Under the pieces are notes generated by a model. The model worked only from the letters and a program-made list of their open reading frames with translations, was not told the DNA's origin and ran no database searches. From Rickettsia endosymbiont of Ceutorhynchus obstrictus (GTDB lineage Bacteria; Pseudomonadota; Alphaproteobacteria; Rickettsiales; Rickettsiaceae), in the NCBI RefSeq assembly GCF_964026565.1, contig NZ_OZ032162.1:1544781-1576780 (forward strand): a stretch of 32,000 nt of DNA. The letters are read 5' to 3'. This document shows positions 3,934 to 25,985 of this stretch, piece after piece (within the stretch, counting starts at the first letter, position 1; each line of letters starts with the position of its first letter). The position numbers and the translations under genes were made by a program.

Positions 3934-4256
3934 TGTCATTCCGTGATTTATTCACGGAATCCAGTCTTTTTATTAAGGTTTTTTCTGGATACCGTGGTCA
4001 AGCCCTCTAGTGTACGAACGTTTAAATAAAGAGGTAAAAATTCTGTCATTCCGTGGCTACGACCACGGAATCCAGCTTATAATATCATAAAAAGACTCTA
4101 AAATAAGTCTAATATGGCTTTATTTTCCTGGATGCCGTGATCAAGTCACGGCATGACACAGCCTTTTTTCAACGTTCGTACAGTAGTGGGTCAAGCCACG
4201 GTATGACACCGAGGACGGTTTGGGTATCCACGCAACAACACCGCCTCATAATGACA
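3934..4256. repeat. RPE-like element (arm-core-arm) whose right arm hairpin is split by a nested element
   Basis: The left arm is tgtcattccgtg-atttatt-cacggaatccag. The right arm is ctggataccgtgg[tcaag]...[tcaag]ccacggtatgaca. It is followed by gggtatccacgcaacaacacc. Confidence 0.85.
4003..4190 (-). mobile_element. 188-bp non-autonomous TIR element (copy 1 of 3) nested in an RPE hairpin loop
   Basis: Termini are ccctctagtgtacgaacgtt ... aacgttcgtacagtagtggg, flanked by the direct repeat tcaag (3998-4002 and 4191-4195). Near-identical copies lie at 7780-7968 and 11253-11441. It has no ORF. Confidence 0.85.
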
Positions 4257-4292
4257 AGGTAAAATCGATCTTGAAATACGAGCAGCATAACA

Positions 4293-5123
4293 ATGTCTCT
4301 ACTGCACGCCTCAATCCTTACCGTTTTTCCCGAAATGTTTCCGGGACCGTTAGGTTTATCTCTGGCCGGTCAAGCATTACACAAAAATATCTGGTCATAT
4401 GATATTGTTAATATCAGAGATTTCGGCATAACTAAGCATAAAAATGTAGACGACGAAGCTTACGGCGGCGGCGACGGCTTAATAATGCGGCCGGATGTTT
4501 TAGGTGCTGCTATCGATTATAGCCTATCTTTAAATCCCGGCAGTAAAATCTATTATCCGTCACCAAGAGGCAAATTATTTAATCAAAGCCTTGCAAGGGA
4601 AATGATCCGGCTAAATTCAGAAAGATTTAGACAAGATGAATTTAATGGTGAGCTGGCTAGGCGTACCGGAGTATGTGAGCACAGGCGAATCCAGAAAAAT
4701 TCGCTTGTATCAAGCTTTATGAATGACGCTGTACGTCAAGATAAAATAATAATTTTATGCGGTCGCTATGAAGGGATTGACGAACGCGTAATTGAAGAGT
4801 ATAATATCAATGAAATTAGCGTAGGGGATTACATCCTATCCGGCGGTGAACTGCCTACTCTTACTATCCTTGATTGCTTAATTAGGCTATTACCAGGCGT
4901 TTTAATAAATCAAAACACGTTATCCTCCGAATCTTTTGAGCAGGACGGCGAGTTTGCCGGTTTATTAGAATGTGCTTTATATACCAGACCCGAAAATTGG
5001 CGAGGAAGAAAAGTACCGAGTGTTTTACTATCGGGCAACCCTCGATTAATTAATGAATGGAAATGCCGGCAATCTACTGAGGTTACCAAATTACGTCGTC
5101 CGGATTTATTAACACGGATTTAG
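4293..5123 (+). CDS. trmD: tRNA (guanine37-N1)-methyltransferase TrmD, carrying a 41-codon in-frame RPE insertion
   Basis: Contains [28 protein letters not shown] and GDYILSGGE motifs typical of TrmD. Gene order trmD-rplS is conserved. The ORF is uninterrupted despite the repeat at 4609-4731. Confidence 0.95.
4609..4731 (+). mobile_element. RPE-1-like repeat inserted in frame inside trmD (123 bp, 41 codons)
   Basis: ggctaaattcagaaagatttagacaagatgaatttaatggtgagc...cacaggcgaatccagaaaaattcgcttgtatcaagctttatgaatgacgctg aligns along its whole length with the intergenic copies at 11041-11164, 20834-20958, 25350-25473 and 30089-30211. Confidence 0.9.
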
Positions 5124-5126
5124 GAT

Positions 5127-5735
5127 AGCTTTGTTGCGTGGCTCGAATTTTTGCAAAGTGTTCGGTGTCATACCGTGGCTTGACCGGCGTTGTTGCATGG
5201 ATGGTAAAAGCAGCAATATGTCATTCTAGCTAAAAGCGGGAATCTAGAAAAAACACTTAAAATAAACAAAATTATATAAAAATTTACTATATAATTCGCT
5301 TAAATATTTTCTGGATTCCCGCTTTTAGGGCGTTGTTGCATGGCTACCAGAATCGTCATTGCGAGGAGGCATTTATGCCGACGTGGCAATCCAGTTAAAC
5401 ATATTTTTATACTAAACTTGTTTAGTATTCTAATTAAATCCCTCATTACATTCGGGATAGCCTGGATTGCCGCAGCCACTTCGTGGCTTCGCAATGACGG
5501 GTTTTTTATTAATTTTCGAGCCATGCAACAACGCCCGCTTTTAGCTAGAATGACATCAAAAATTTGATCCATGCAACAACGCCGCCGCTGCAGGCGGCGT
5601 GGCAATCTAGGCTCTCCCGAATGTAATGAGGGATTAATTAGAATATTAAACAAGTTTAGTATAACTGGATTGCCACGTCGGGACTACGTCCCTCCTCGCC
5701 ATGACGGCATTTTTTGCAACGTTTTTGATCCACAT
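5127..5735. repeat. Mosaic of nested RPE-like elements between trmD and rplS
   Basis: Several module types recur here. The terminal modules are Rgc(g/t)ttgttgcRtgg, and the arm hairpins are tgtcattc...gggaatc(c/t)ag and gtcattgcgagg...ggcaatccag. The cores are of AT-rich and cccgaatgtaatgagggatt types. Confidence 0.9.
5329..5535. mobile_element. 207-bp RPE with GGCGTTGTTGCATGG / CCATGCAACAACGCC termini, nested in another RPE with a 9-bp duplication
   Basis: The direct repeat cgcttttag lies at 5320-5328 and 5536-5544. The host arm reads ctggattcc-cgcttttag-[insert]-cgcttttag-ctagaatgaca. An uninterrupted relative of the host lies at 21319-21501. Confidence 0.85.
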
Positions 5736-5759
5736 AATTTTTTACTAGGAGTTAAATAA

Positions 5760-6179
5760 ATGAATATTATTGACCAGTTTGAACAGGAACATATTTCCCG
5801 GCTTATCGCAAATAAAAAAATTCCTGCTTTTAACGCCGGTGATACCGTTAAAGTTACCGTCAAACTAATTGATAGATCAATAGAGAAAGACGGTAAGGAA
5901 AAAATAATTGAAAGATTTCAAGCTTACGAGGGCGTAGTAATCGCTAAAAGAAATAGAGGAGTTACTTCTTCTTTTCTAGTGCGTAAAATTAGCCATGGCG
6001 AAGGCGTAGAAAGGCGCTTTATGACCTACTCGCCGATAGTACACTCTATTGACGTAGTAAAATACGGCGTGGTTCGTCGTGCTAAGCTTTATTATTTAAG
6101 ACAAAGAAGCGGTAAATCAGCCAGGATTAAAGAAAGGTTTGTGCATGCTAGTAAGAACCCTAAAGCTAAAGCTGTTTAA
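5760..6179 (+). CDS. rplS: 50S ribosomal protein L19
   Basis: GGAG lies upstream of the ATG. The protein has L19 features ([39 protein letters not shown]) and sits directly downstream of trmD as in most bacteria. Confidence 0.95.
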
Positions 6180-6203
6180 TAGAAAATAGTATTATTGGAT
6201 GTA

Positions 6204-6316
6204 TGTCATTCCTGCGAAGGCAGGAATCCAGGTTTTTCTTTGTCATGCTGAAACAAGTTTAGCATGACGAGTATTAGATTGCCGCGTCTAGGCTTAAGCA
6301 CCTCCTCGCAATGACA
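6204..6316. repeat. 113-bp RPE-like element filling the convergent rplS/nth spacer and overlapping the nth 3' end
   Basis: tgtcattcctgcgaaggcaggaatccag + gtcatgctgaaacaagtttagcatgac hairpin + tagattgccgcg...cctcctcgcaatgaca. Confidence 0.85.
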
Positions 6317-6956
6317 TCATACTATAATACTCACAATATTCCCTAATCGGACAAATAGCACATTCCGGTTTTCTGGCTTTACAAATATATCGCCCGTGTA
6401 ATACCAACCAGTGATGGGCATGTGCCAGCCATTTCTTACCGATAATTTGCAATAATTCGGCTTCCACTTTTTCGGGACTATTACCTTTGGCAAGCCCTAG
6501 CCTTTTTGCTACTCTAAATACATGAGTATCAACGGCTATGGTTGGCTGCTGAAATAAACAATTTAATATAACATTTGCTGTTTTTCTGCCTACTCCCGGC
6601 AATTTAATTAATTCTTCAAAGCCGTGCGGTACGCGGCTGTGATAATTATTTATTAGTAGGCTACACAAAGAAATTATATTTTTTGCTTTAGCGTTAAATA
6701 ACCCGATAGATTTGATATAATTTTTTAGCCCTTCTTCGCCGAGCCGTAAGACTTTCTCCGGCGTGTCGTAAACCTCGAATAAGGATTTCGTCGCTAAATT
6801 TACCGATATATCAGTAGCCTGCGCCGATAATATTACCGCTACCAATAAAGTAAAATCATTCTTATATTCTAATTCCGTTTTAGGATTTTCATTATTATCG
6901 CTTAAAATTTTAAAAATTTTATCAACCCATAATTTATCTTTTATTTGTGCTTGCAT
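6294..6956 (-). CDS. nth: Endonuclease III (DNA-(apurinic/apyrimidinic site) lyase). The last ~7 codons and the stop lie inside an RPE arm.
   Basis: Helix-hairpin-helix [11 protein letters not shown], catalytic region VDTHVFRV, and the C-terminal 4Fe-4S cluster spacing [17 protein letters not shown]. Confidence 0.93.
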
Positions 6957-6997
6957 AATACGCTATTAAAATGGTAAAATTTGACTTTCAAGAATAA

Positions 6998-7140
6998 ACC
7001 TCTTGCATAACTTGCTTCTAAAGGTAATTTGTACGTCAAGCAGATAGCTGAATCCTCACGTTACTTGCGTGTACGTTGCGGTTCTGCGCTTCGTGTTTCC
7101 TTCAAATTCCTCTTTATTAGCTACGTTATGCAAGAGGTCT
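6998..7140. repeat. ~143-bp palindromic element of a distinct family in the nth/grx divergent spacer
   Basis: Terminal inverted repeat aacctcttgcataac ... gttatgcaagaggt. Interior segments (ctcacgttact, cttcaaattc) faintly resemble the RPE-1-like family. It is single-copy in this window. Confidence 0.6.
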
Positions 7141-7164
7141 AATTAAAGTTTACTAGGTTTTAAG

Positions 7165-7497
7165 ATGACTGAAAACAAAAATTTTGCCAATAAGAATTTT
7201 GAATTTATAAAAAATGAAATAGACAATAATAATGTTGTGCTATTTATGAAAGGCACTAAAGAGTCGCCTATGTGTGGGTTTTCCGGTAGTGTGGTTGCTA
7301 TTTTAGAAAAACTAGATGTAGAATTTCGCGATATTAACGTGCTTAGCGATCCGGAACTTCGGGAAGCTCTAAAAATTTTTAGCGATTGGCCGACCTTTCC
7401 ACAACTATATATTAAAGGTGAATTTATCGGCGGTTGCGATATAGCCAAAGAAATGTATCAAAGCGGCGAACTTGCAGCGTTGTTAGTGAGAGTTTAA
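7165..7497 (+). CDS. grxD: Monothiol (CGFS-type) glutaredoxin, Grx4/GrxD family
   Basis: Contains VVLFMKGTKESPMCGFSG, WPTFPQLYIKGEFIGGCDI. Length 110 aa. Confidence 0.9.
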   Translation: MTENKNFANKNFEFIKNEIDNNNVVLFMKGTKESPMCGFSGSVVAILEKLDVEFRDINVLSDPELREALKIFSDWPTFPQLYIKGEFIGGCDIAKEMYQSGELAALLVRV

Positions 7498-7552
7498 GAG
7501 ATATTTTCTCGCACCTGTATTAGTAGAATGCATTTTGAGCAAACATCCCCGA

Positions 7553-7984
7553 TGTCATTCCCGTGAAAACGGGAATCCAGGCTTTTCTTTGTCATGCTGA
7601 ACTTGTTTCAGCATCTCTTGTAGTAGATCCTGAAATAAATTCAGGATGACTTTTGAATATTTTTCTGGATTCCCGCCTGCGCGGGAATGACACCGAGGGC
7701 GTTTTTAACCATCCACGCAACAACGCTTGTAGCTTCTCGCAATGACGTTTTAGGTATCCACGCAACAACACCGGCTTGACCCACTACTGTACGAACGTTG
7801 AAAAAAGGCTGTGTCATGCCGTGACTTGATCACGGCATCCAGGAAAATAAAGCCATATTAGACTTATTTTAGAATCTTTTTATGATATTATAAGCTGGAC
7901 TGAAGTGGTCGTAGCCACGGAATGACAGAATTTTTACCTCTTTATTTAAACGTTCGTACAGTAGTGGGCTTGACCACGGTATGA
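7553..7984. repeat. RPE-like cluster between grx and the esterase gene
   Basis: A 140-bp palindromic unit at 7553-7692 belongs to the same family as 3457-3594, in opposite orientation. It is followed by ccacgcaacaacgc modules and then a host hairpin split by the nested element 7780-7968. Confidence 0.9.
7780..7968 (+). mobile_element. 189-bp TIR element (copy 2 of 3)
   Basis: Termini are cccactactgtacgaacgtt ... aacgttcgtacagtagtggg, flanked by cttga (7775-7779 and 7969-7973) inside ...caccgg-cttga-ccacggtat. Confidence 0.85.
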
Positions 7985-8020
7985 TATTGTATTTATAATA
8001 ACTATAAAAAATTAAAACCA

Positions 8021-8656
8021 ATGAATAAAAATTTAATATATCCCGAAATTAACAGTAAAGAGCTACCGCCGAAAAGACTAGCGGTATTATTGCACGGCGT
8101 CGGTTCCGACGGTCACGATTTGATAGGGCTGGTGCCGTATATCAAAGATGATTTACCGGATTGTTATTTTATTTCTCCGCATGGGGTTGAGCCTTACGAT
8201 ATGGCACCTTACGGGCGGCAATGGTTTAGTTTGCAAGATCGCACTCCTCATAAAATGCAAAAATTACTGGAAAATAATGTTGCGCTTCTTGCAGAGATAA
8301 TTAAGCAAAAACAAGCCGAGTTAAACTTGACTAATAAAGATACTATTATTATCGGTTTTTCTCAAGGTACGATGATCGGGCTATATTTAACGCTTGCTAG
8401 CCAAGAGCCGTTTTTATGTAGTATAGGTTTTTCAGGATTACTAGTTGCACCGACTGAATGCATTAATAAATCGACTCCTATTTGCTTAATTCATGGAGAG
8501 CTTGATGAGGTAGTTAGCATTAGCGAAATGGATAATGCCGCAAAATATTTATCCAAATATCAAATACCTTATGAAAGTCATAAAATTCCCAGGCTTGCCC
8601 ACTCTATTGACGCAAAAGGGCTAGAATTTGCAATTAATTTTATTAAAAAACAATAG
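8021..8656 (+). CDS. Alpha/beta hydrolase, phospholipase/carboxylesterase family
   Basis: [12 protein letters not shown] near the N-terminus, nucleophile elbow GFSQGTM (GxSxG), and later D and H candidates ([13 protein letters not shown]). About 210 aa, as in the carboxylesterase/lysophospholipase family. Confidence 0.8.
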
Positions 8657-8965
8657 CGTTGTTGCCTGGATTGGAAAAATCTATAAACTCGTCATTGCGA
8701 GCGAGGATTGTTGCGTGGCTTGACATAAGTAGCAGTATGTCATTCCTGCGAAGGCAGGAATCCAGGCTAAAAAGCCTTAGCTTATAAGGCTTTTTTCTAT
8801 ATAATTGTAAGTTATAGTTACATCTTTAGTTTAATTTTTCTGGATTCCCGCCTGCGCGGGAATGACATAAGGGGCAGCGGGAATGACATCGAAAATTCAA
8901 GCTATGCAATAACGCCTTTAGTCGCTCGCAATGACGCGGTGTTAATCAAGCTATGTAACAACACT
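8655..8965. mobile_element. 311-bp composite RPE inserted exactly at the esterase stop codon, with a 9-bp duplication
   Basis: Termini are agcgttgttgcctgg ... ctatgtaacaacact, with the direct repeat aaaaacaat at 8646-8654 and 8966-8974. A second RPE (about 8707-8925) sits inside the gtcattgcgagcga/tcgctcgcaatgac arm hairpin. Confidence 0.85.
8769..8796 (+). terminator. Candidate intrinsic terminator hairpin inside the RPE core downstream of the esterase gene
   Basis: An 11-bp stem aaaaagcctta/taaggcttttt with loop gctta, followed by a T run and preceded by an A run (potentially bidirectional). The stem is AT-rich, so it is weak. Confidence 0.35.
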
Positions 8966-8985
8966 AAAAACAATAGGATAAATGA

Positions 8986-10257
8986 ATGGATATTTTTGGC
9001 AATAAATTAGCAGATACTGATAGAGAAATTTACGAAATAATTAATAGTGAAAAGCATCGACAAAGAGACGTGGTTGAACTTATTGCCTCGGAAAATTTTA
9101 CTAGCCGTGCCGTGCTAGAGGCTCAAGGCTCGGTACTTACTAATAAATACGCTGAAGGTTATCCGGGGAAGCGTTTTTATAACGGTTGCGAGGAGGTAGA
9201 TAAGGCAGAGCTACTCGCCATAGAGCGAGCAAAAAAATTATTTAATTGTCAATATGCCAATGTTCAGCCTCATTCAGGCTCGCAGGCTAATCAAGCAGTT
9301 TTTTTGACGTTATTACAGCCGGGCGATACTATCCTTGGTATGTCTTTAGATAGCGGCGGGCATCTGACGCATGGAGCAGCTCCAAACATGTCCGGTAAAT
9401 GGTTTAACGCGGTTTTTTACAGCGTTGATAAAGACAGTTATTTAATCGATTATGATGAAATAGAAAAACTAGCAATATTACATAAACCAAAGCTAATTAT
9501 TGCCGGTTATTCCGCTTATCCAAGAAACTTAGATTTTGCCAAGTTCCGAGAAATTGCCGACAAAGTAGGTGCATATCTTATGGCAGATATTGCTCATATC
9601 GCAGGACTTGTGGCTGTTGGTGAGCATGCAAGCCCTTTGCCCTTTGCACATATTGTAACTTCCACTACCCATAAAACTTTGCGAGGTCCAAGAGGCGGCT
9701 TAATTTTATCGAACGACGAAGAGCTTGGGAAAAAAATCAATCTTGCTTTATTTCCCGGAATACAAGGCGGGCCGTTAATGCATATTATAGCTGCCAAAGC
9801 CGTAGCCTTCAAGGAAGCCTTACAGCCTGAATATAAAAACTACATAAAGCAGGTTTTAAGTAATGCTAAAGCTCTAGCGCAAAGCGTACAAGAAAGAGGA
9901 TATGATATTTTAACCAAGGGTACCGATAACCATATCGTGTTAATAGATTTACGCAAAGACGGTATCACCGGCAAAATAGCCGCCAACTCTTTAGATAGAG
10001 CAGGCATTACCTGCAATAAAAACAGCATCCCGTTTGATGAAACCTCGCCCTTTATTACCTCAGGAATTAGGCTCGGCAGCCCCGCTTGCACAACTAGAGG
10101 ATTTAAGGAACAAGAATTTATATTAGTCGGGCAAATGATCGCCGATATATTAGATAGCCTTAAAGACCATCAGAATAATAGCAAATGCGAGGAAAAAATT
10201 CACGCACAAGTAAAAAATTTAGTCAAAAACTTTCCTTTTTATAGTATACTCAAATGA
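8986..10257 (+). CDS. glyA: Serine hydroxymethyltransferase
   Basis: [38 protein letters not shown] and the PLP-lysine region [15 protein letters not shown] are diagnostic. Confidence 0.97.
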
Positions 10258-10301
10258 TGCAGAAGAGTATGTAGGTTTTTGGAAGTTGTAAAAGTATAGT
10301 T

Positions 10302-11030
10302 ATGAATACAAAATTAGTCTTTCCGGGATTTTCGTCAGAAGTAATTAATTTTCTTCAACAATTACAAGCTAATAATAACCGTCTATGGTTTAAAGAAAAT
10401 AAACATATATTTAAGGATTTATTAGAGCCGGCAGCTAATATATTTGTTGAACAAATGACTCAAAATCTTCAGGAAATTGCCGAAGAACCTATGCAAGGCA
10501 AGATTTTTCGTATTTATCGTGATGTACGCTTCAGTAAAAATAACACTCCTTACGACCCGTCTTTAAGAATAGGATTCACCCGCCTAAATACTAAGCAAGC
10601 TCAATGTAGTGATTACCCTATGTTTTATTTGTCACTACAACCGGACAAGCTTATTCTCGCTTGCGGTCTACGTGAGTTTTCTAAAAATGGGTTAATTGCT
10701 TACCGCGAAGCGATAATTGATAATCAAAGAGGGGCAAAGCTTGAAACTCTTCTCAACAGCTATATCAAGAAGAATTTCAAACTTGATCCGCCGGACTTAA
10801 AAAATATACCAAGCGGTTACGATAAAGATCATCCTAGAGAAAATTTATTGCGTCGTAAAAAGCTTGCTATATGGAGTTATTACTCCTCCCTAGATAACAT
10901 TACTACCCCGAATGCCTTAAAATTTTGTCTTGAACAATATCGTATCATGCAACCTATTTATGAGTGGCTAAAGATACTCACTAGCTTTAGAGAAGAATCA
11001 GCTATGCGTAAATATAGCTTCGCTTATTAA
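10302..11030 (+). CDS. DUF2461 (TIGR02453-like) family conserved hypothetical protein
   Basis: The FLxxLxxNNNRxWF N-terminus and the [17 protein letters not shown] motif are typical of that family as I remember it. Function is unknown. Confidence 0.7.
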
Positions 11031-11040
11031 GGTCTATATA

Positions 11041-11164
11041 CAGCGTCATCGCGATCGCTTGATACAAGCGAATTTTTCGGCATTCGCCTGTGCTCACGTA
11101 CTTTAGTACGGTAGCTTAGCTCTTCCTCAAATTCATCTTGTCTGAAACTTTCTGAATTTAGCCG
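11041..11164 (-). mobile_element. RPE-1-like repeat (124 bp) just downstream of the DUF2461 gene
   Basis: cagcgtcatcgcgatcgcttgatacaagcgaattttt...ctttctgaatttagccg is the reverse complement of the trmD and 30089 copies. TA dinucleotides flank both ends. Confidence 0.9.
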
Positions 11165-11252
11165 TACCTAGCGAAACCCGTCATTGCGAACGACTGGAGG
11201 CGTTGTTGCGTGGATGGTTAAATCGCTTAAAACTTGTCATACCGTGGTCAAA

Positions 11253-11441
11253 CCCACTACTGTACGAACGTTGAAAAAAGGCTGTGTCATGCCGTGACTT
11301 GATCACGGCATCCAGGAAAATAAAGCCATATTAGACTTATTTTAGAATCTTTTTATGATATTATAAGCTGGACTGAAGTGGTCGTAGCCACGGAATGACA
11401 GAATTTTTACCTCTTTATTTAAACGTTCGTACAGTAGTGGG
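11253..11441 (+). mobile_element. 189-bp TIR element (copy 3 of 3)
   Basis: Flanked by tcaaa (11248-11252 and 11442-11446) inside tgtcataccgtgg-tcaaa-ccggcattgttgcatgg. Its orientation relative to the host module is opposite to that of copy 2. Confidence 0.85.
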
Positions 11442-11494
11442 TCAAACCGGCATTGTTGCATGGCTCAAATTTTTGATGTCATTCTAGCTAAAGG

Positions 11495-11640
11495 CCATAA
11501 CTGTCCGAAGTTGAAAAATTAAGATTATTAAATAGTACTTTTTTTGCCGTTAATGCTAAAAATACTACTATTTTGATATATAATAGAGTGAAAAACTCAA
11601 ACAGTTTCTCTATTTATTTTTCAACTTCGGACAGTTATGG
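11495..11640. mobile_element. 146-bp MITE-like element with a perfect 25-bp TIR, nested in an RPE arm
   Basis: Termini are ccataactgtccgaagttgaaaaat ... atttttcaacttcggacagttatgg. The direct repeat ctaaagg lies at 11488-11494 and 11641-11647. Removing the insert and one repeat copy restores the arm tgtcattctagctaaaggcgggaatccag. It has no ORF and is single-copy in this window. Confidence 0.85.
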
Positions 11641-11954
11641 CTAAAGGCGGGAATCCAGATTTTTCTTTGTCATGCTGAACTTGTTTCGGCATCTCTTGCA
11701 AAATATCCTGAAATAAATTCAGGATGACTATTATTTTCTAGATTGCCGCGCTCCTTGCAGTCGCTCGCAATGACGATTATGGTAACCACGCAACAACGCC
11801 TCTTCGCGGGAATGACATACTGCTGCTTTTATCGAACCGTGCAATAATGCCGGTCAAGTCACGGTATGACACCATACTTGTAATAACTATAATGCGGTAA
11901 ATTATGAGCCATGCAACAACACCGGCACCTTACAATGCCTCGGTATAACAAATT

Positions 11955-21318: not shown

Positions 21319-21501
21319 GACGTTGTTGTATGGCTCGATAAAGCAGCAGTATGTCATTCCTAGCTAAAGGCGGGAATCTAGAAAAAATACTTAAAATAAA
21401 CAAACTTATATAAAAATTTACTATATAATTCGCTTAAATGCTTTTCCGGATTCCCGTTTTCACGGGAATGACATCAAAAATTCGAGCCATGCAACAACGC
21501 C
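21319..21501. mobile_element. 183-bp RPE with an AT-rich core and a 9-bp duplication
   Basis: Termini are gacgttgttgtatgg ... ccatgcaacaacgcc, with the direct repeat ccttaaatg at 21310-21318 and 21502-21510. Confidence 0.85.
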
Positions 21502-23947: not shown

Positions 23948-24451
23948 GACTTTGTTGCATGACTCGATACAAGCAACAGCATGTCATTCCTAGCTAAAGG
24001 CCGGGCTTTGTTGCACGGCTCTAAAAAAGTGCCGTATGTCATTCCCGCGCAGGCAGGAATCTAGCCGTATTTATGTCATGCTGAACTTGTTTCAGCATCT
24101 TTTAGTAGATCCTGAAAAAATTCAGGATGACTTAAAAAGTATTTTTCTGGATTCCCGTTTTCACGGGAATGACATCAAAAATTCGAGCCATGCAACAACG
24201 CCGAAGGCAATGCTCGCGTGGATACCGGAATCGTCATTGCGAGGAGGGACGTAGTCCCGGCGCGGCAATCCAGAAAATAATAATTTTCATAGCATTTTTT
24301 GCTATTTTTTTCTCCAGATTGCCACGTCGATGCTCCGCATCTCCTCGCAATGACGGGGTAAGATCGAGCCATACAACAACACCCAACCTTCACGAGAATG
24401 ACAGAGAGCATACTTAACCTGTCCACACAACAACGCCGCCTCGCAATGGCG
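23948..24451. repeat. RPE-like cluster (at least three elements) between nusG and rplK
   Basis: Three parts are recognisable. A truncated left end runs gactttgttgcatgactcga...tgtcattcctagctaaagg. A full element follows, from ggctttgttgcacggctc to tcgagccatgcaacaacgcc, with the gtcatgctgaa/atcctgaaaaaattcaggat core. A gtcattgcgaggagg-armed element then carries a different short core (atagcattttttgctat). Confidence 0.9.
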
Positions 24452-25752: not shown

Positions 25753-25985
25753 GTCATTGCAAGGAGGCACAGGCGTTGTTGCATGGCTCGAATTTTCGAT
25801 GTCATTCCTAGCTAAAGGCGGGAATCCAGACTTTTCTTTGTCATGTTGAACTTGTTTCAGCATCTGCTTGTATTAGATCCTGAAATAAATTCAGGATGAC
25901 TATAATTTTCCGGATTCCCGTTTTCACGGGAATGACACCGAAAATTCGAGCCATGCACCACCACCACTAATGCTTCACAATGGCG
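25753..25985. repeat. RPE-like element(s) between fusA and tRNA-Trp, ending 4 bp from the fusA stop
   Basis: A degenerate outer hairpin gtcattgcaaggagg...cttcacaatggcg encloses an element from ggcgttgttgcatggctcga to tcgagccatgcaccaccacc. That inner element has the tgtcattcctagctaaaggcgggaatccag arm and the gtcatgttgaa/atcctgaaataaattcaggat core. Confidence 0.9.

Follow-up and report, generated by a model that had tools for sequence, protein, structure and literature searches.

Evidence for recent site-specific insertions of a miniature transposon in palindromic repeat modules of a weevil Rickettsia endosymbiont

Insertion sequences (ISs) that settle in genomic repeats have been described from five IS families, and the behaviour was shown experimentally for IS1397 and ISKpn1 and by genome analysis for ISPpu9/10, ISPa11, ISRm19, and ISRm22 (PMC1525189, PMC3184786). 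All of the copies (10/10) of ISRm22, a member of the IS4 family, were located in repetitive extragenic palindromes (REPs) of S. meliloti at the axis of the palindrome, the hybrid repeats were ascribed to recombination, and the same 2006 survey recorded 0 mobile elements in R. conorii (PMC1525189). The length of the direct repeat is variable within the IS4 family, IS4Sa elements having CA------T ends and direct repeats of 8-10 bp (PMC2266710, Table 1) and IS231 elements having 5'-CA(T) ends and a variable duplication of 10-12 bp (PMC2266710). An 11-bp duplication at GGGNNNNNCCC was listed for IS231A, and a target preference of AGNTYWRANCT for Tn5 (PMC2577343, Table 1). In the present study, we analysed a stretch of 32,000 nucleotides from the Rickettsia endosymbiont of Ceutorhynchus obstrictus (the window), in which a short element with inverted ends, designated family A, was inserted three times into palindromic modules. 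Rickettsia palindromic elements (RPEs) are reportedly short palindromic repeats of Rickettsia, known from the work of Ogata et al. of 2000 and 2002; to our knowledge, they have not been described with terminal inverted repeats (TIRs) and a target duplication or with a mobilisation mechanism, and such a route has been lacking since 2000. We use the term RPE-like for the family-A interior and its host modules because they are repetitive and palindromic and belong to a Rickettsia genome. Our results support the view that the family-A copies are recent, independent, site-specific transpositions of a MITE (miniature inverted-repeat transposable element), which is probably mobilised in trans and targets GG-N5-CC in the context CCGTGG-(CTTGA/TCAAG)-CC, with duplication of the target.

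The three copies, their direct repeats, and the modules concerned were located in the window as follows.

4003..4190, minus strand: family-A copy 1, 188 bp including the CCC...GGG ends, with the CA...TG core at 4005-4188; the degenerate TIR CCCTCTAGTG... is on the low-coordinate side
3996..4004 (left) and 4189-4197 (right): 9-bp direct repeat GGTCAAGCC of copy 1, with the 5-bp core tcaag at 3998-4002
3935..4002, plus strand: left part of the copy-1 host, a double-hairpin RPE-like module, gtcattccgtga-tttat-tcacggaatccag ... ctggataccgtgg
4191-4210: right part of the copy-1 host, ccacggtatgacacc
7780..7968, plus strand: family-A copy 2, 189 bp, core at 7782-7966
7773-7781 and 7967-7975: 9-bp direct repeat GGCTTGACC of copy 2
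11253..11441, plus strand: family-A copy 3, 189 bp, core at 11255-11439
11246-11254 and 11440-11448: 9-bp direct repeat GGTCAAACC of copy 3
5168..5200, plus strand: unoccupied module ataCCGTGG-CTTGA-CCggcgttgttgcatgg, with CCGTGG-N5-CC at 5173-5185
11852..11864, minus strand: unoccupied variant module CCGTGA-CTTGA-CC, with GA replacing GG

Family A was approximately 184-189 bp long and non-coding, with inverted ends formed by TIRs of 18-20 nt. Copies 2 and 3 showed 100% identity across 190 nt, and copy 1 was their reverse complement with 96% identity and 2 mismatches in one TIR. An initial annotation of the window, made from the letters alone, had placed three near-identical copies with shared inverted termini at these positions, and both statements were confirmed: the 20-mer TIR CCCACTACTGTACGAACGTT was matched six times in the window at <=3 mismatches, against an expectation of 0 (100 shuffles). 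Stops were found in all six frames, and the longest internal stretch was of 32 codons and lacked a start, leaving the element no coding capacity. The whole element was predicted to fold at -39 kcal/mol (z -8.3), and its interior formed a double-hairpin RPE-like repeat belonging to the class that also includes the copy-1 host module. Of the two inner hairpins named in the initial annotation, the second had an altered left arm in copies 2 and 3, where CTGGACTGAAGTGG replaced CTGGATTCCGTGG; this difference served as a subtype mark. Family A is a MITE, that is, a non-autonomous DNA transposon, as judged from its size, the lack of a gene, the TIRs, a duplication generated at each locus, and a polymorphism of presence and absence at orthologous sites.

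Every copy in the window interrupted ataccgtgg-N5-cc(a/g)(c/g)gg, i.e. CCGTGG-N5-CC. The flanking pentamers were exact (tcaag/tcaag for copy 1, cttga/cttga for copy 2, and tcaaa/tcaaa for copy 3), as the initial annotation had stated, but in each copy the repetition remained exact over 9 bp (GGTCAAGCC, GGCTTGACC, and GGTCAAACC, respectively), which makes the reported duplication of 5 bp a minimum. The target 9-mers GGCTTGACC/GGTCAAGCC/GGTCAAACC occurred seven times in the window; six of them flanked the copies, and the seventh was the empty one at 5177-5185, a GGCTTGACC within the uninterrupted ataccgtggcttgaccggcg that had been noticed at 5168-5190 and was indeed found there. The native target sequence was ataccgtGGCTTGACCacggtat. 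For copy 1, the whole host module had an uninterrupted paralogue at L003 6330-6405 (loci fetched for this study are cited by L numbers). Copy 3 was opposite in orientation to copy 2 when the asymmetric host was taken as the reference, and the outer flanks of the three copies were unlike and belonged to different module classes; both observations of the initial annotation were thus upheld.

The record of the source genome was OZ034920.1 (assembly GCA_964030775.1), with the window at 987979-998614 and its surroundings, and the sister genome, that of the Rickettsia endosymbiont of Orchestes rusci (GCA_964030945.1), was 99% identical to it. Copies were located via annotated proteins by a 42-aa query translated from the element, and the loci were fetched with 10-kb flanks, giving a census sample of ~230 kb that covered the source genome and two of its weevil Rickettsia relatives, in which 23 full or near-full family-A copies were tabulated. 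In the 90.6 kb sampled from the source genome, the motif CCGTGG-N5-CC held 9/10 full copies, and in the 107 kb from the Orchestes rusci symbiont it held 11/14. Overall, 20 of the 24 full copies were at CCGTGG|N5|CC (binomial P ~1e-7), a motif that made up 13-16% of all GG-N5-CC sites and was present approximately twice per 10 kb. The context proposed in the initial annotation was shared by most of the further copies. Occupied modules amounted to 9/19 in the source genome and 11/26 in the Orchestes symbiont, or ~45%. Among the 14 unselected copies, which had not prompted the retrieval of a locus (three in the window and 11 in the flanks of the fetched loci), all (14/14) were in CCGTGG-N5-CC. 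An exact direct repeat matching the variant of its own locus surrounded 20/23 full copies. With respect to the type 1 REP association of Tobes and Pareja, family A had a target consensus at the same position, and 3-4 atypical sites kept the proportion of copies below 100%.

Comparison with the sister genome revealed a clean empty site. The locus L016 8303-8490 of the source genome, with folE on one side and a gene for a tRNA synthetase on the other, was occupied, while its orthologue in L015 was empty and read atgccgtggcttgaccacggcat; the flanks were otherwise identical, and the difference consisted precisely of the element and a single repeat copy. At another orthologous pair, L016 2245-2433 and L015 822-1009, both sites were occupied, with the flanks and the variant repeat GGACAAGCC (ACAAG) alike. 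The two elements were in opposite orientation and of different subtypes (CTGGATT-CCGTGG vs CTGGACTGAAGTGG), which points to two independent hits at one site; in-situ inversion by TIR recombination was disfavoured as an explanation because the subtypes differed. The inverted element of the other subtype had G replacing T at position 21 at both ends. At variant loci, the variant of the locus itself stood at either side of the element (ACAAG, TCAAA, and GATCAAGCC), and three insertions were found in targets unrelated to the module, with perfect duplications of CATATGCGCG, GGTATGACACC, and GGCCCCTCCC. The median identity between copies was 97.8-98.9%, and many copies were identical, which argues for recent activity. 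Taken together, the empty orthologue, the duplication of locus-own variants, the site hit twice, and the unrelated targets exclude segmental duplication and make gene conversion very unlikely. The initial annotation had read the copies as independent site-specific insertions and had proposed comparing occupied with empty hosts in related genomes; the orthologous empty site, the locus-own variants, and the exclusive CCGTGG-N5-CC context of the unselected copies bear out that reading.

A 144-bp relative, designated family B, was present in the same window.

11496..11639, plus strand: family-B MITE, 144 bp, with the TIR CATAACTGTCCGAAGTTGAAAAA, homologous to the family-A TIR
11487-11495 and 11640-11648: exact 9-bp direct repeat GCTAAAGGC of family B
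21363..21371 (plus strand), 23993-24001, and 25811-25819: empty family-B targets GCTAAAGGC in modules of the same type

The TIRs of families A and B were identical at 20/24 positions, a value reached by 0/2000 shuffles. Further family-B loci were found at L016 16796-16939, L018 5805-5948, and L009 7064-7207. The exact 9-bp repeat GCTAAAGGC or its complement was present at 3/3 loci, and the host, another RPE-like module (gtcattcta|GCTAAAGGC|gggaatccag), was likewise the same in 3/3. The family-A target GGTCAAGCC and the family-B target GCTAAAGGC had 6/9 positions in common (GSTMAAGSC).

Transposition is not the only process that could have produced such copies, and a spread without it, by ectopic recombination or gene conversion between RPE modules or by copying of module and insert as one unit, was considered. 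Conversion between the repeated palindromic host modules could act in either orientation, and the copies do undergo recombination after insertion: two had chimeric flanks (L017 13331 and L021 10041), and one-ended deletion products in which the inner CTTGA hairpin was joined to the flanking repeat were found at L016 213-358 and L017 11287-11428. However, this explanation is hardly credible given that each locus had duplicated its own variant 9-mer (ACAAG, TCAAA, and GA..), that three targets had no homology to the module, that the outer flanks came from different module classes, that the empty and occupied orthologues differed by the element and one repeat only, and that family B showed the same pattern in another module. 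Recognition of a hairpin or cruciform, with insertion at the stem-loop junctions and the loop as the duplication, would accommodate the host of the ccacgg type, which folds into a strong hairpin as DNA (-11 kcal/mol, z -4.6) and whose 5-nt loop equals the minimal duplication, as well as the module with a 6-nt loop, ataccgagg-cccctc-ccacgg, where the duplication was longer by one base; IS1397 and ISKpn1 have also been described as inserting into palindromic units (PMC1525189). We consider it distinctly unlikely, since neither the ccgg-type module holding window copies 2 and 3 (-2 kcal/mol, z +1.2) nor the target of family B (-2.2 kcal/mol) formed a stable hairpin and a target without any hairpin, GGTATGACACC, was used. 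Moreover, the inner hairpin of the element itself, gccgtgaCTTGAtcacggc (gccgtga-CTTGA-tcacggc; -10.1 kcal/mol), has the same CTTGA loop and equal stability with GA/TC closing, and it was unoccupied in all ~24 copies. Because two of the three hosts in the window were unfolded and the stable hairpin of the element was never hit, the determinant appears to be the sequence GG-N5-CC in the CCGTGG context, and specificity would lie in contacts between transposase and DNA sequence rather than in an extruded hairpin. The claim of the initial annotation that the element enters a hairpin loop thus holds for the module split by the insertion, CCGTGG-N5-CC, but not for the loop as a structure.

The length of the duplication bears on a further alternative. 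Since the module supplies GG before and CC after the loop and the element seemingly ends in CCC/GGG, the canonical sites fit three readings equally: CCC...GGG with 5 bp, CCA...TGG with 7 bp, and CA...TG with 9 bp. Ends of CCC...GGG with a 5-bp duplication would suit a mobiliser with short duplications such as an IS1380-family enzyme, a family with CC ends and direct repeats of 4-5 bp; the 5-bp repeats were exact in all canonical copies, the copy L016 19259 was compatible with 5-7 bp and mismatched at position 9, elements of the IS1380 family begin with CCC (ISPa33, CCCGGATTTCTCATGA, CTAA repeats), and in the symbiont of Polydrusus one IS1380 element and a TIR copy were 0.8 kb apart. This alternative seems unlikely to us. 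The copy at L018 10053 had a perfect 10-bp repeat although CACTACTG/CAGTAGTG there are not adjoined by CC/GG, and the copy at L017 10068 duplicated GATCAAGCC, where the 5-bp reading demands a coincident mutation of the TIR. Under CCC...GGG ends the duplication would vary over 5-7 bp, beyond the IS1380 range; under CA...TG ends it was 9 bp in 16 copies, 10 bp in 2, and 11 bp in 1. The sole IS1380 element seen had a different inverted repeat (IR), CCCGGATATTGCATGA, with a flanking TTAG repeat that was not within an RPE module, and no protein of weevil Rickettsia was among the best 120 homologues of its transposase. The atypical sites and the exact 9-bp repeats of family B, for which CA...TG ends give 9 bp just as for family A, favour the longer duplication, and the true ends are more likely to be 5'-CA...TG-3', with a duplication of 9 bp (occasionally 10-11) of GG-N5-CC, than those of the 5-bp reading.

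For the trans-mobilised MITE with its GG-N5-CC target, the following course can be proposed. A DDE-type transposase acting in trans would bind the family-A ends and make a staggered cut in the short, nearly palindromic GG-N5-CC in the context CCGTGG-(CTTGA/TCAAG)-CC, the target being nearly confined to one class of RPE-like modules, and gap repair would then yield the duplicated target. As the CC/GG ends of the element and the duplicated target rebuild GG-N5-CC at both junctions, the site could be hit again and tandem elements could arise. A tandem at L018 2658-3065, consisting of a standard copy, a 9-mer, a 207-bp element, and a 9-mer, with three GGTCAAGCC in total, is the pattern that a second insertion into a regenerated junction would give. 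The best-fitting family for the mobiliser appears to be IS4, with an enzyme of the IS4Sa or IS231 type; the starting bases of families A and B (CACTACTGT... and CATAACTGT...) have 5'-CA and T at position 9.

Several points weigh against this account. The IS4 assignment relies on three end positions and the duplication length, together with the shape of the target, and such a resemblance is weak. No autonomous element with family-A ends was found in the GTDB representative genomes by a CCC-anchored pattern, which misses other targets. No parent was found in metagenomes with the degenerate TIR, where three chance matches in GC-rich or AT-rich contexts had no second end, or in viral contigs (0 matches), and blastn against plasmids with the whole element and a 48-mer end (E<=10) returned nothing relevant. 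The ~270 kb of fetched loci contained only IS3, IS630, IS1380, and Rpn-type genes and no candidate for a DDE transposase with the YREK motif that could act on family A. The mismatch of L016 19259 at position 9 fits 5-7 bp better, and the choice among 5, 7, and 9 bp comes from only four atypical copies and the analogy with family B. Finally, some of the census copies were biased because the peptide query contained the flank motif; the unselected copies were unbiased, and with 14/14 of them in the motif the specificity result is independent of that query.

The transposase genes near the copies were compared with family A and rejected as parents. In the Polydrusus symbiont, L001 2740-5127 was a nested wreck, where a TIR copy in a cgg-CTTGA context was followed after 3 nt by an IS3 element starting with TGATGTGG; the orfB of the latter was broken by the IS1380 element with the IR CCCGGATATTGCATGA and TTAG on both sides, after which the sequence jumped to an autotransporter fragment. 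The IS3 element, inserted beside or into the TIR copy and with its orfA after the TIR, had its own TG...CA ends (TGATGTGG...), which were shared by relatives in pPCS109 and pRPR without the family-A TIR. The IS1380 element was discarded for the unrelated IR, the position of TTAG, and the lack of a weevil-Rickettsia homologue in the top 120, all noted above. The TIRs of IS630 and of a second IS3 element at the Orchestes loci were unrelated, as were the ends of ISRpe1 (IS481-like; TGTAATAGTTGAG...). Genes for Rpn-family (Transposase_31, PD-(D/E)XK) recombination-promoting nucleases were observed (L017 14516-15457 and L022 17189-18103), occurring in the Orchestes symbiont and on the plasmid pRPR of R. 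peacockii.

The 207-bp element of the tandem (L018 2850-3056) had the same right TIR and a degenerate left TIR, CCCGGAAGTGTATGAACGTT, around a wholly different, complete RPE composite, which shows that the end pair is able to enclose differing RPE cargo. For comparison, IS231 prefers the ends of the transposon Tn4430, and MIC231 is an IS231 end pair around foreign cargo. It is conceivable, but improbable in our estimation, that the TIR pair acts as a shuttle for RPEs, with the double hairpin of family A, the composite at L018 2850-3056, and family B as cargoes; this idea goes back to that single variant copy. If it were true, end pairs would capture and move RPE modules and the RPEs would supply the landing sites, and the mutual nesting would amount to a route for RPE mobilisation.

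The exact family-A TIR was rare in public data: with the pattern anchored on CCC, it was present among 185,579 GTDB representative genomes only in the Rickettsia endosymbiont of Polydrusus tereticollis (3 loci) and in one Paracaedibacteraceae metagenome-assembled genome. In the latter (DAHVSZ010000044.1, L004 4940-5080), one end of the element, identical over 26 nt and preceded by GGCTTGGCC, adjoined hairpin repeats of the Rickettsia type (ctggattcccgccttcgcgggaatgac), and the contig was otherwise GC-rich and belonged to a different order. This suggests that small elements are exchanged between intracellular bacteria or that RPE-like repeats are more widespread. In the Orchestes symbiont, the contig L009 1-1160, compared with the window at ~4400-5595, was not colinear upstream of rplS and carried an extra copy at 834-1021, in a module that the source genome lacks at this position; a rearrangement would explain it, or else a further insertion beside the breakpoint.

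The window belongs to the conserved core of Rickettsia genomes (trmD, rplS, glyA, rpoBC, fusA, and ribosomal proteins) that was rich in RPE-like repeats, with 39 direct-repeat families and 123 inverted pairs, and two tRNAs were its only Rfam matches. The target 9-mer brings a -35-like TTGACC, and at 7970-7999 a TATAAT was located 18 nt downstream of it; this 11/12 match to a sigma-70-type promoter ended 22 bp before the ATG (8021) of a gene for a 211-aa hydrolase. Such a motif was present in every GGCTTGACC module. The 42-aa query retrieved at least 22 entries of 40-65 aa, annotated as "hypothetical proteins", from the endosymbionts of Orchestes rusci and Ceutorhynchus obstrictus (P0001-P0022, e.g. 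WP_341793008.1), whose open reading frames (ORFs) start in the flank and run into the 32-codon stretch of the element. Their N-termini, …IPWLD or …IPWSS before PLLYERL, correspond to ataccgtgg-cttga/tcaag. These proteins are annotation artefacts, handy for locating copies. The read-through ORFs of the window were the following.

7869-8021, minus strand: read-through ORF
11181-11306, minus strand: read-through ORF
4137-4262, plus strand: read-through ORF

Classical Rickettsia genomes offered no active transposons with which repeat targeting could be tested. The weevil symbionts provide a recently active, polymorphic MITE pair with a sharply defined 9-bp target within RPE-like modules, and thereby a tractable case for the question of which transposase is at work in the genome of an obligate intracellular bacterium. 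The MITE families are usable as clean strain markers, and their copies serve as substrates for recombination, as seen from the chimeric flanks and the deletions. In practical terms, at least 22 RefSeq "hypothetical proteins" are explained as read-through ORFs of the element.

The initial annotation regarded a parasite nested in another parasite as unusual; in kind it is not, since IS elements of five families already target REP repeats (PMC1525189). ISRm22 (IS4Sa) resembles family A in that the copies, with few or no exceptions, occupy a single position at the axis of a palindrome repeated across the genome, in both orientations, with hybrid repeats via recombination between copies and with CA------T ends (Tobes and Pareja 2006, PMC1525189; De Palmenaer et al. 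2008, PMC2266710). In contrast, ISRm22 is autonomous, with ~1.2-1.7 kb and a transposase, whereas the elements here have 144-189 bp and no gene; its host is a RIME/REP sequence instead of an RPE-like module, and its direct repeat is 6 bp according to Tobes and Pareja (PMC1525189). IS231A and MIC231 of the B. cereus group share with family A a target made of a G-run, N5, and a C-run, GGGNNNNNCCC, which is duplicated (PMC2577343), and also CA ends and a variable duplication (PMC2266710), but they reside in Firmicutes, their duplication spans 11 bp against mostly 9 bp here, and the similarity of the ends stops at CA. IS1397 and ISKpn1 are the proven case of a transposase that chooses a repeated extragenic palindrome, the palindromic units within BIMEs (bacterial interspersed mosaic elements) in enterobacteria (PMC1525189, PMC3184786); unlike the mobiliser proposed for family A, they belong to the IS3 family and have TG...CA ends and a frameshifted orfAB. 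Within the Rickettsiaceae, mISOt1, mISOt2, and mISOt4 of Orientia tsutsugamushi are likewise amplified MITEs mobilised in trans (Nakayama et al. 2008, PMC2575882), but their TIRs are shared with identified cognate ISs, and targeting of a repeat family was not reported for them (PMC2575882). Short palindromic repeats resembling RPEs make up both the host modules and the MITE interior, the MITE differs from RPEs by its TIR and duplication, and the literature searched contained no description of a TIR element nested in RPEs. What is new here is therefore the host, an RPE-like repeat of Rickettsia, and the invader, a MITE built from such repeats, while repeat targeting itself is known behaviour.

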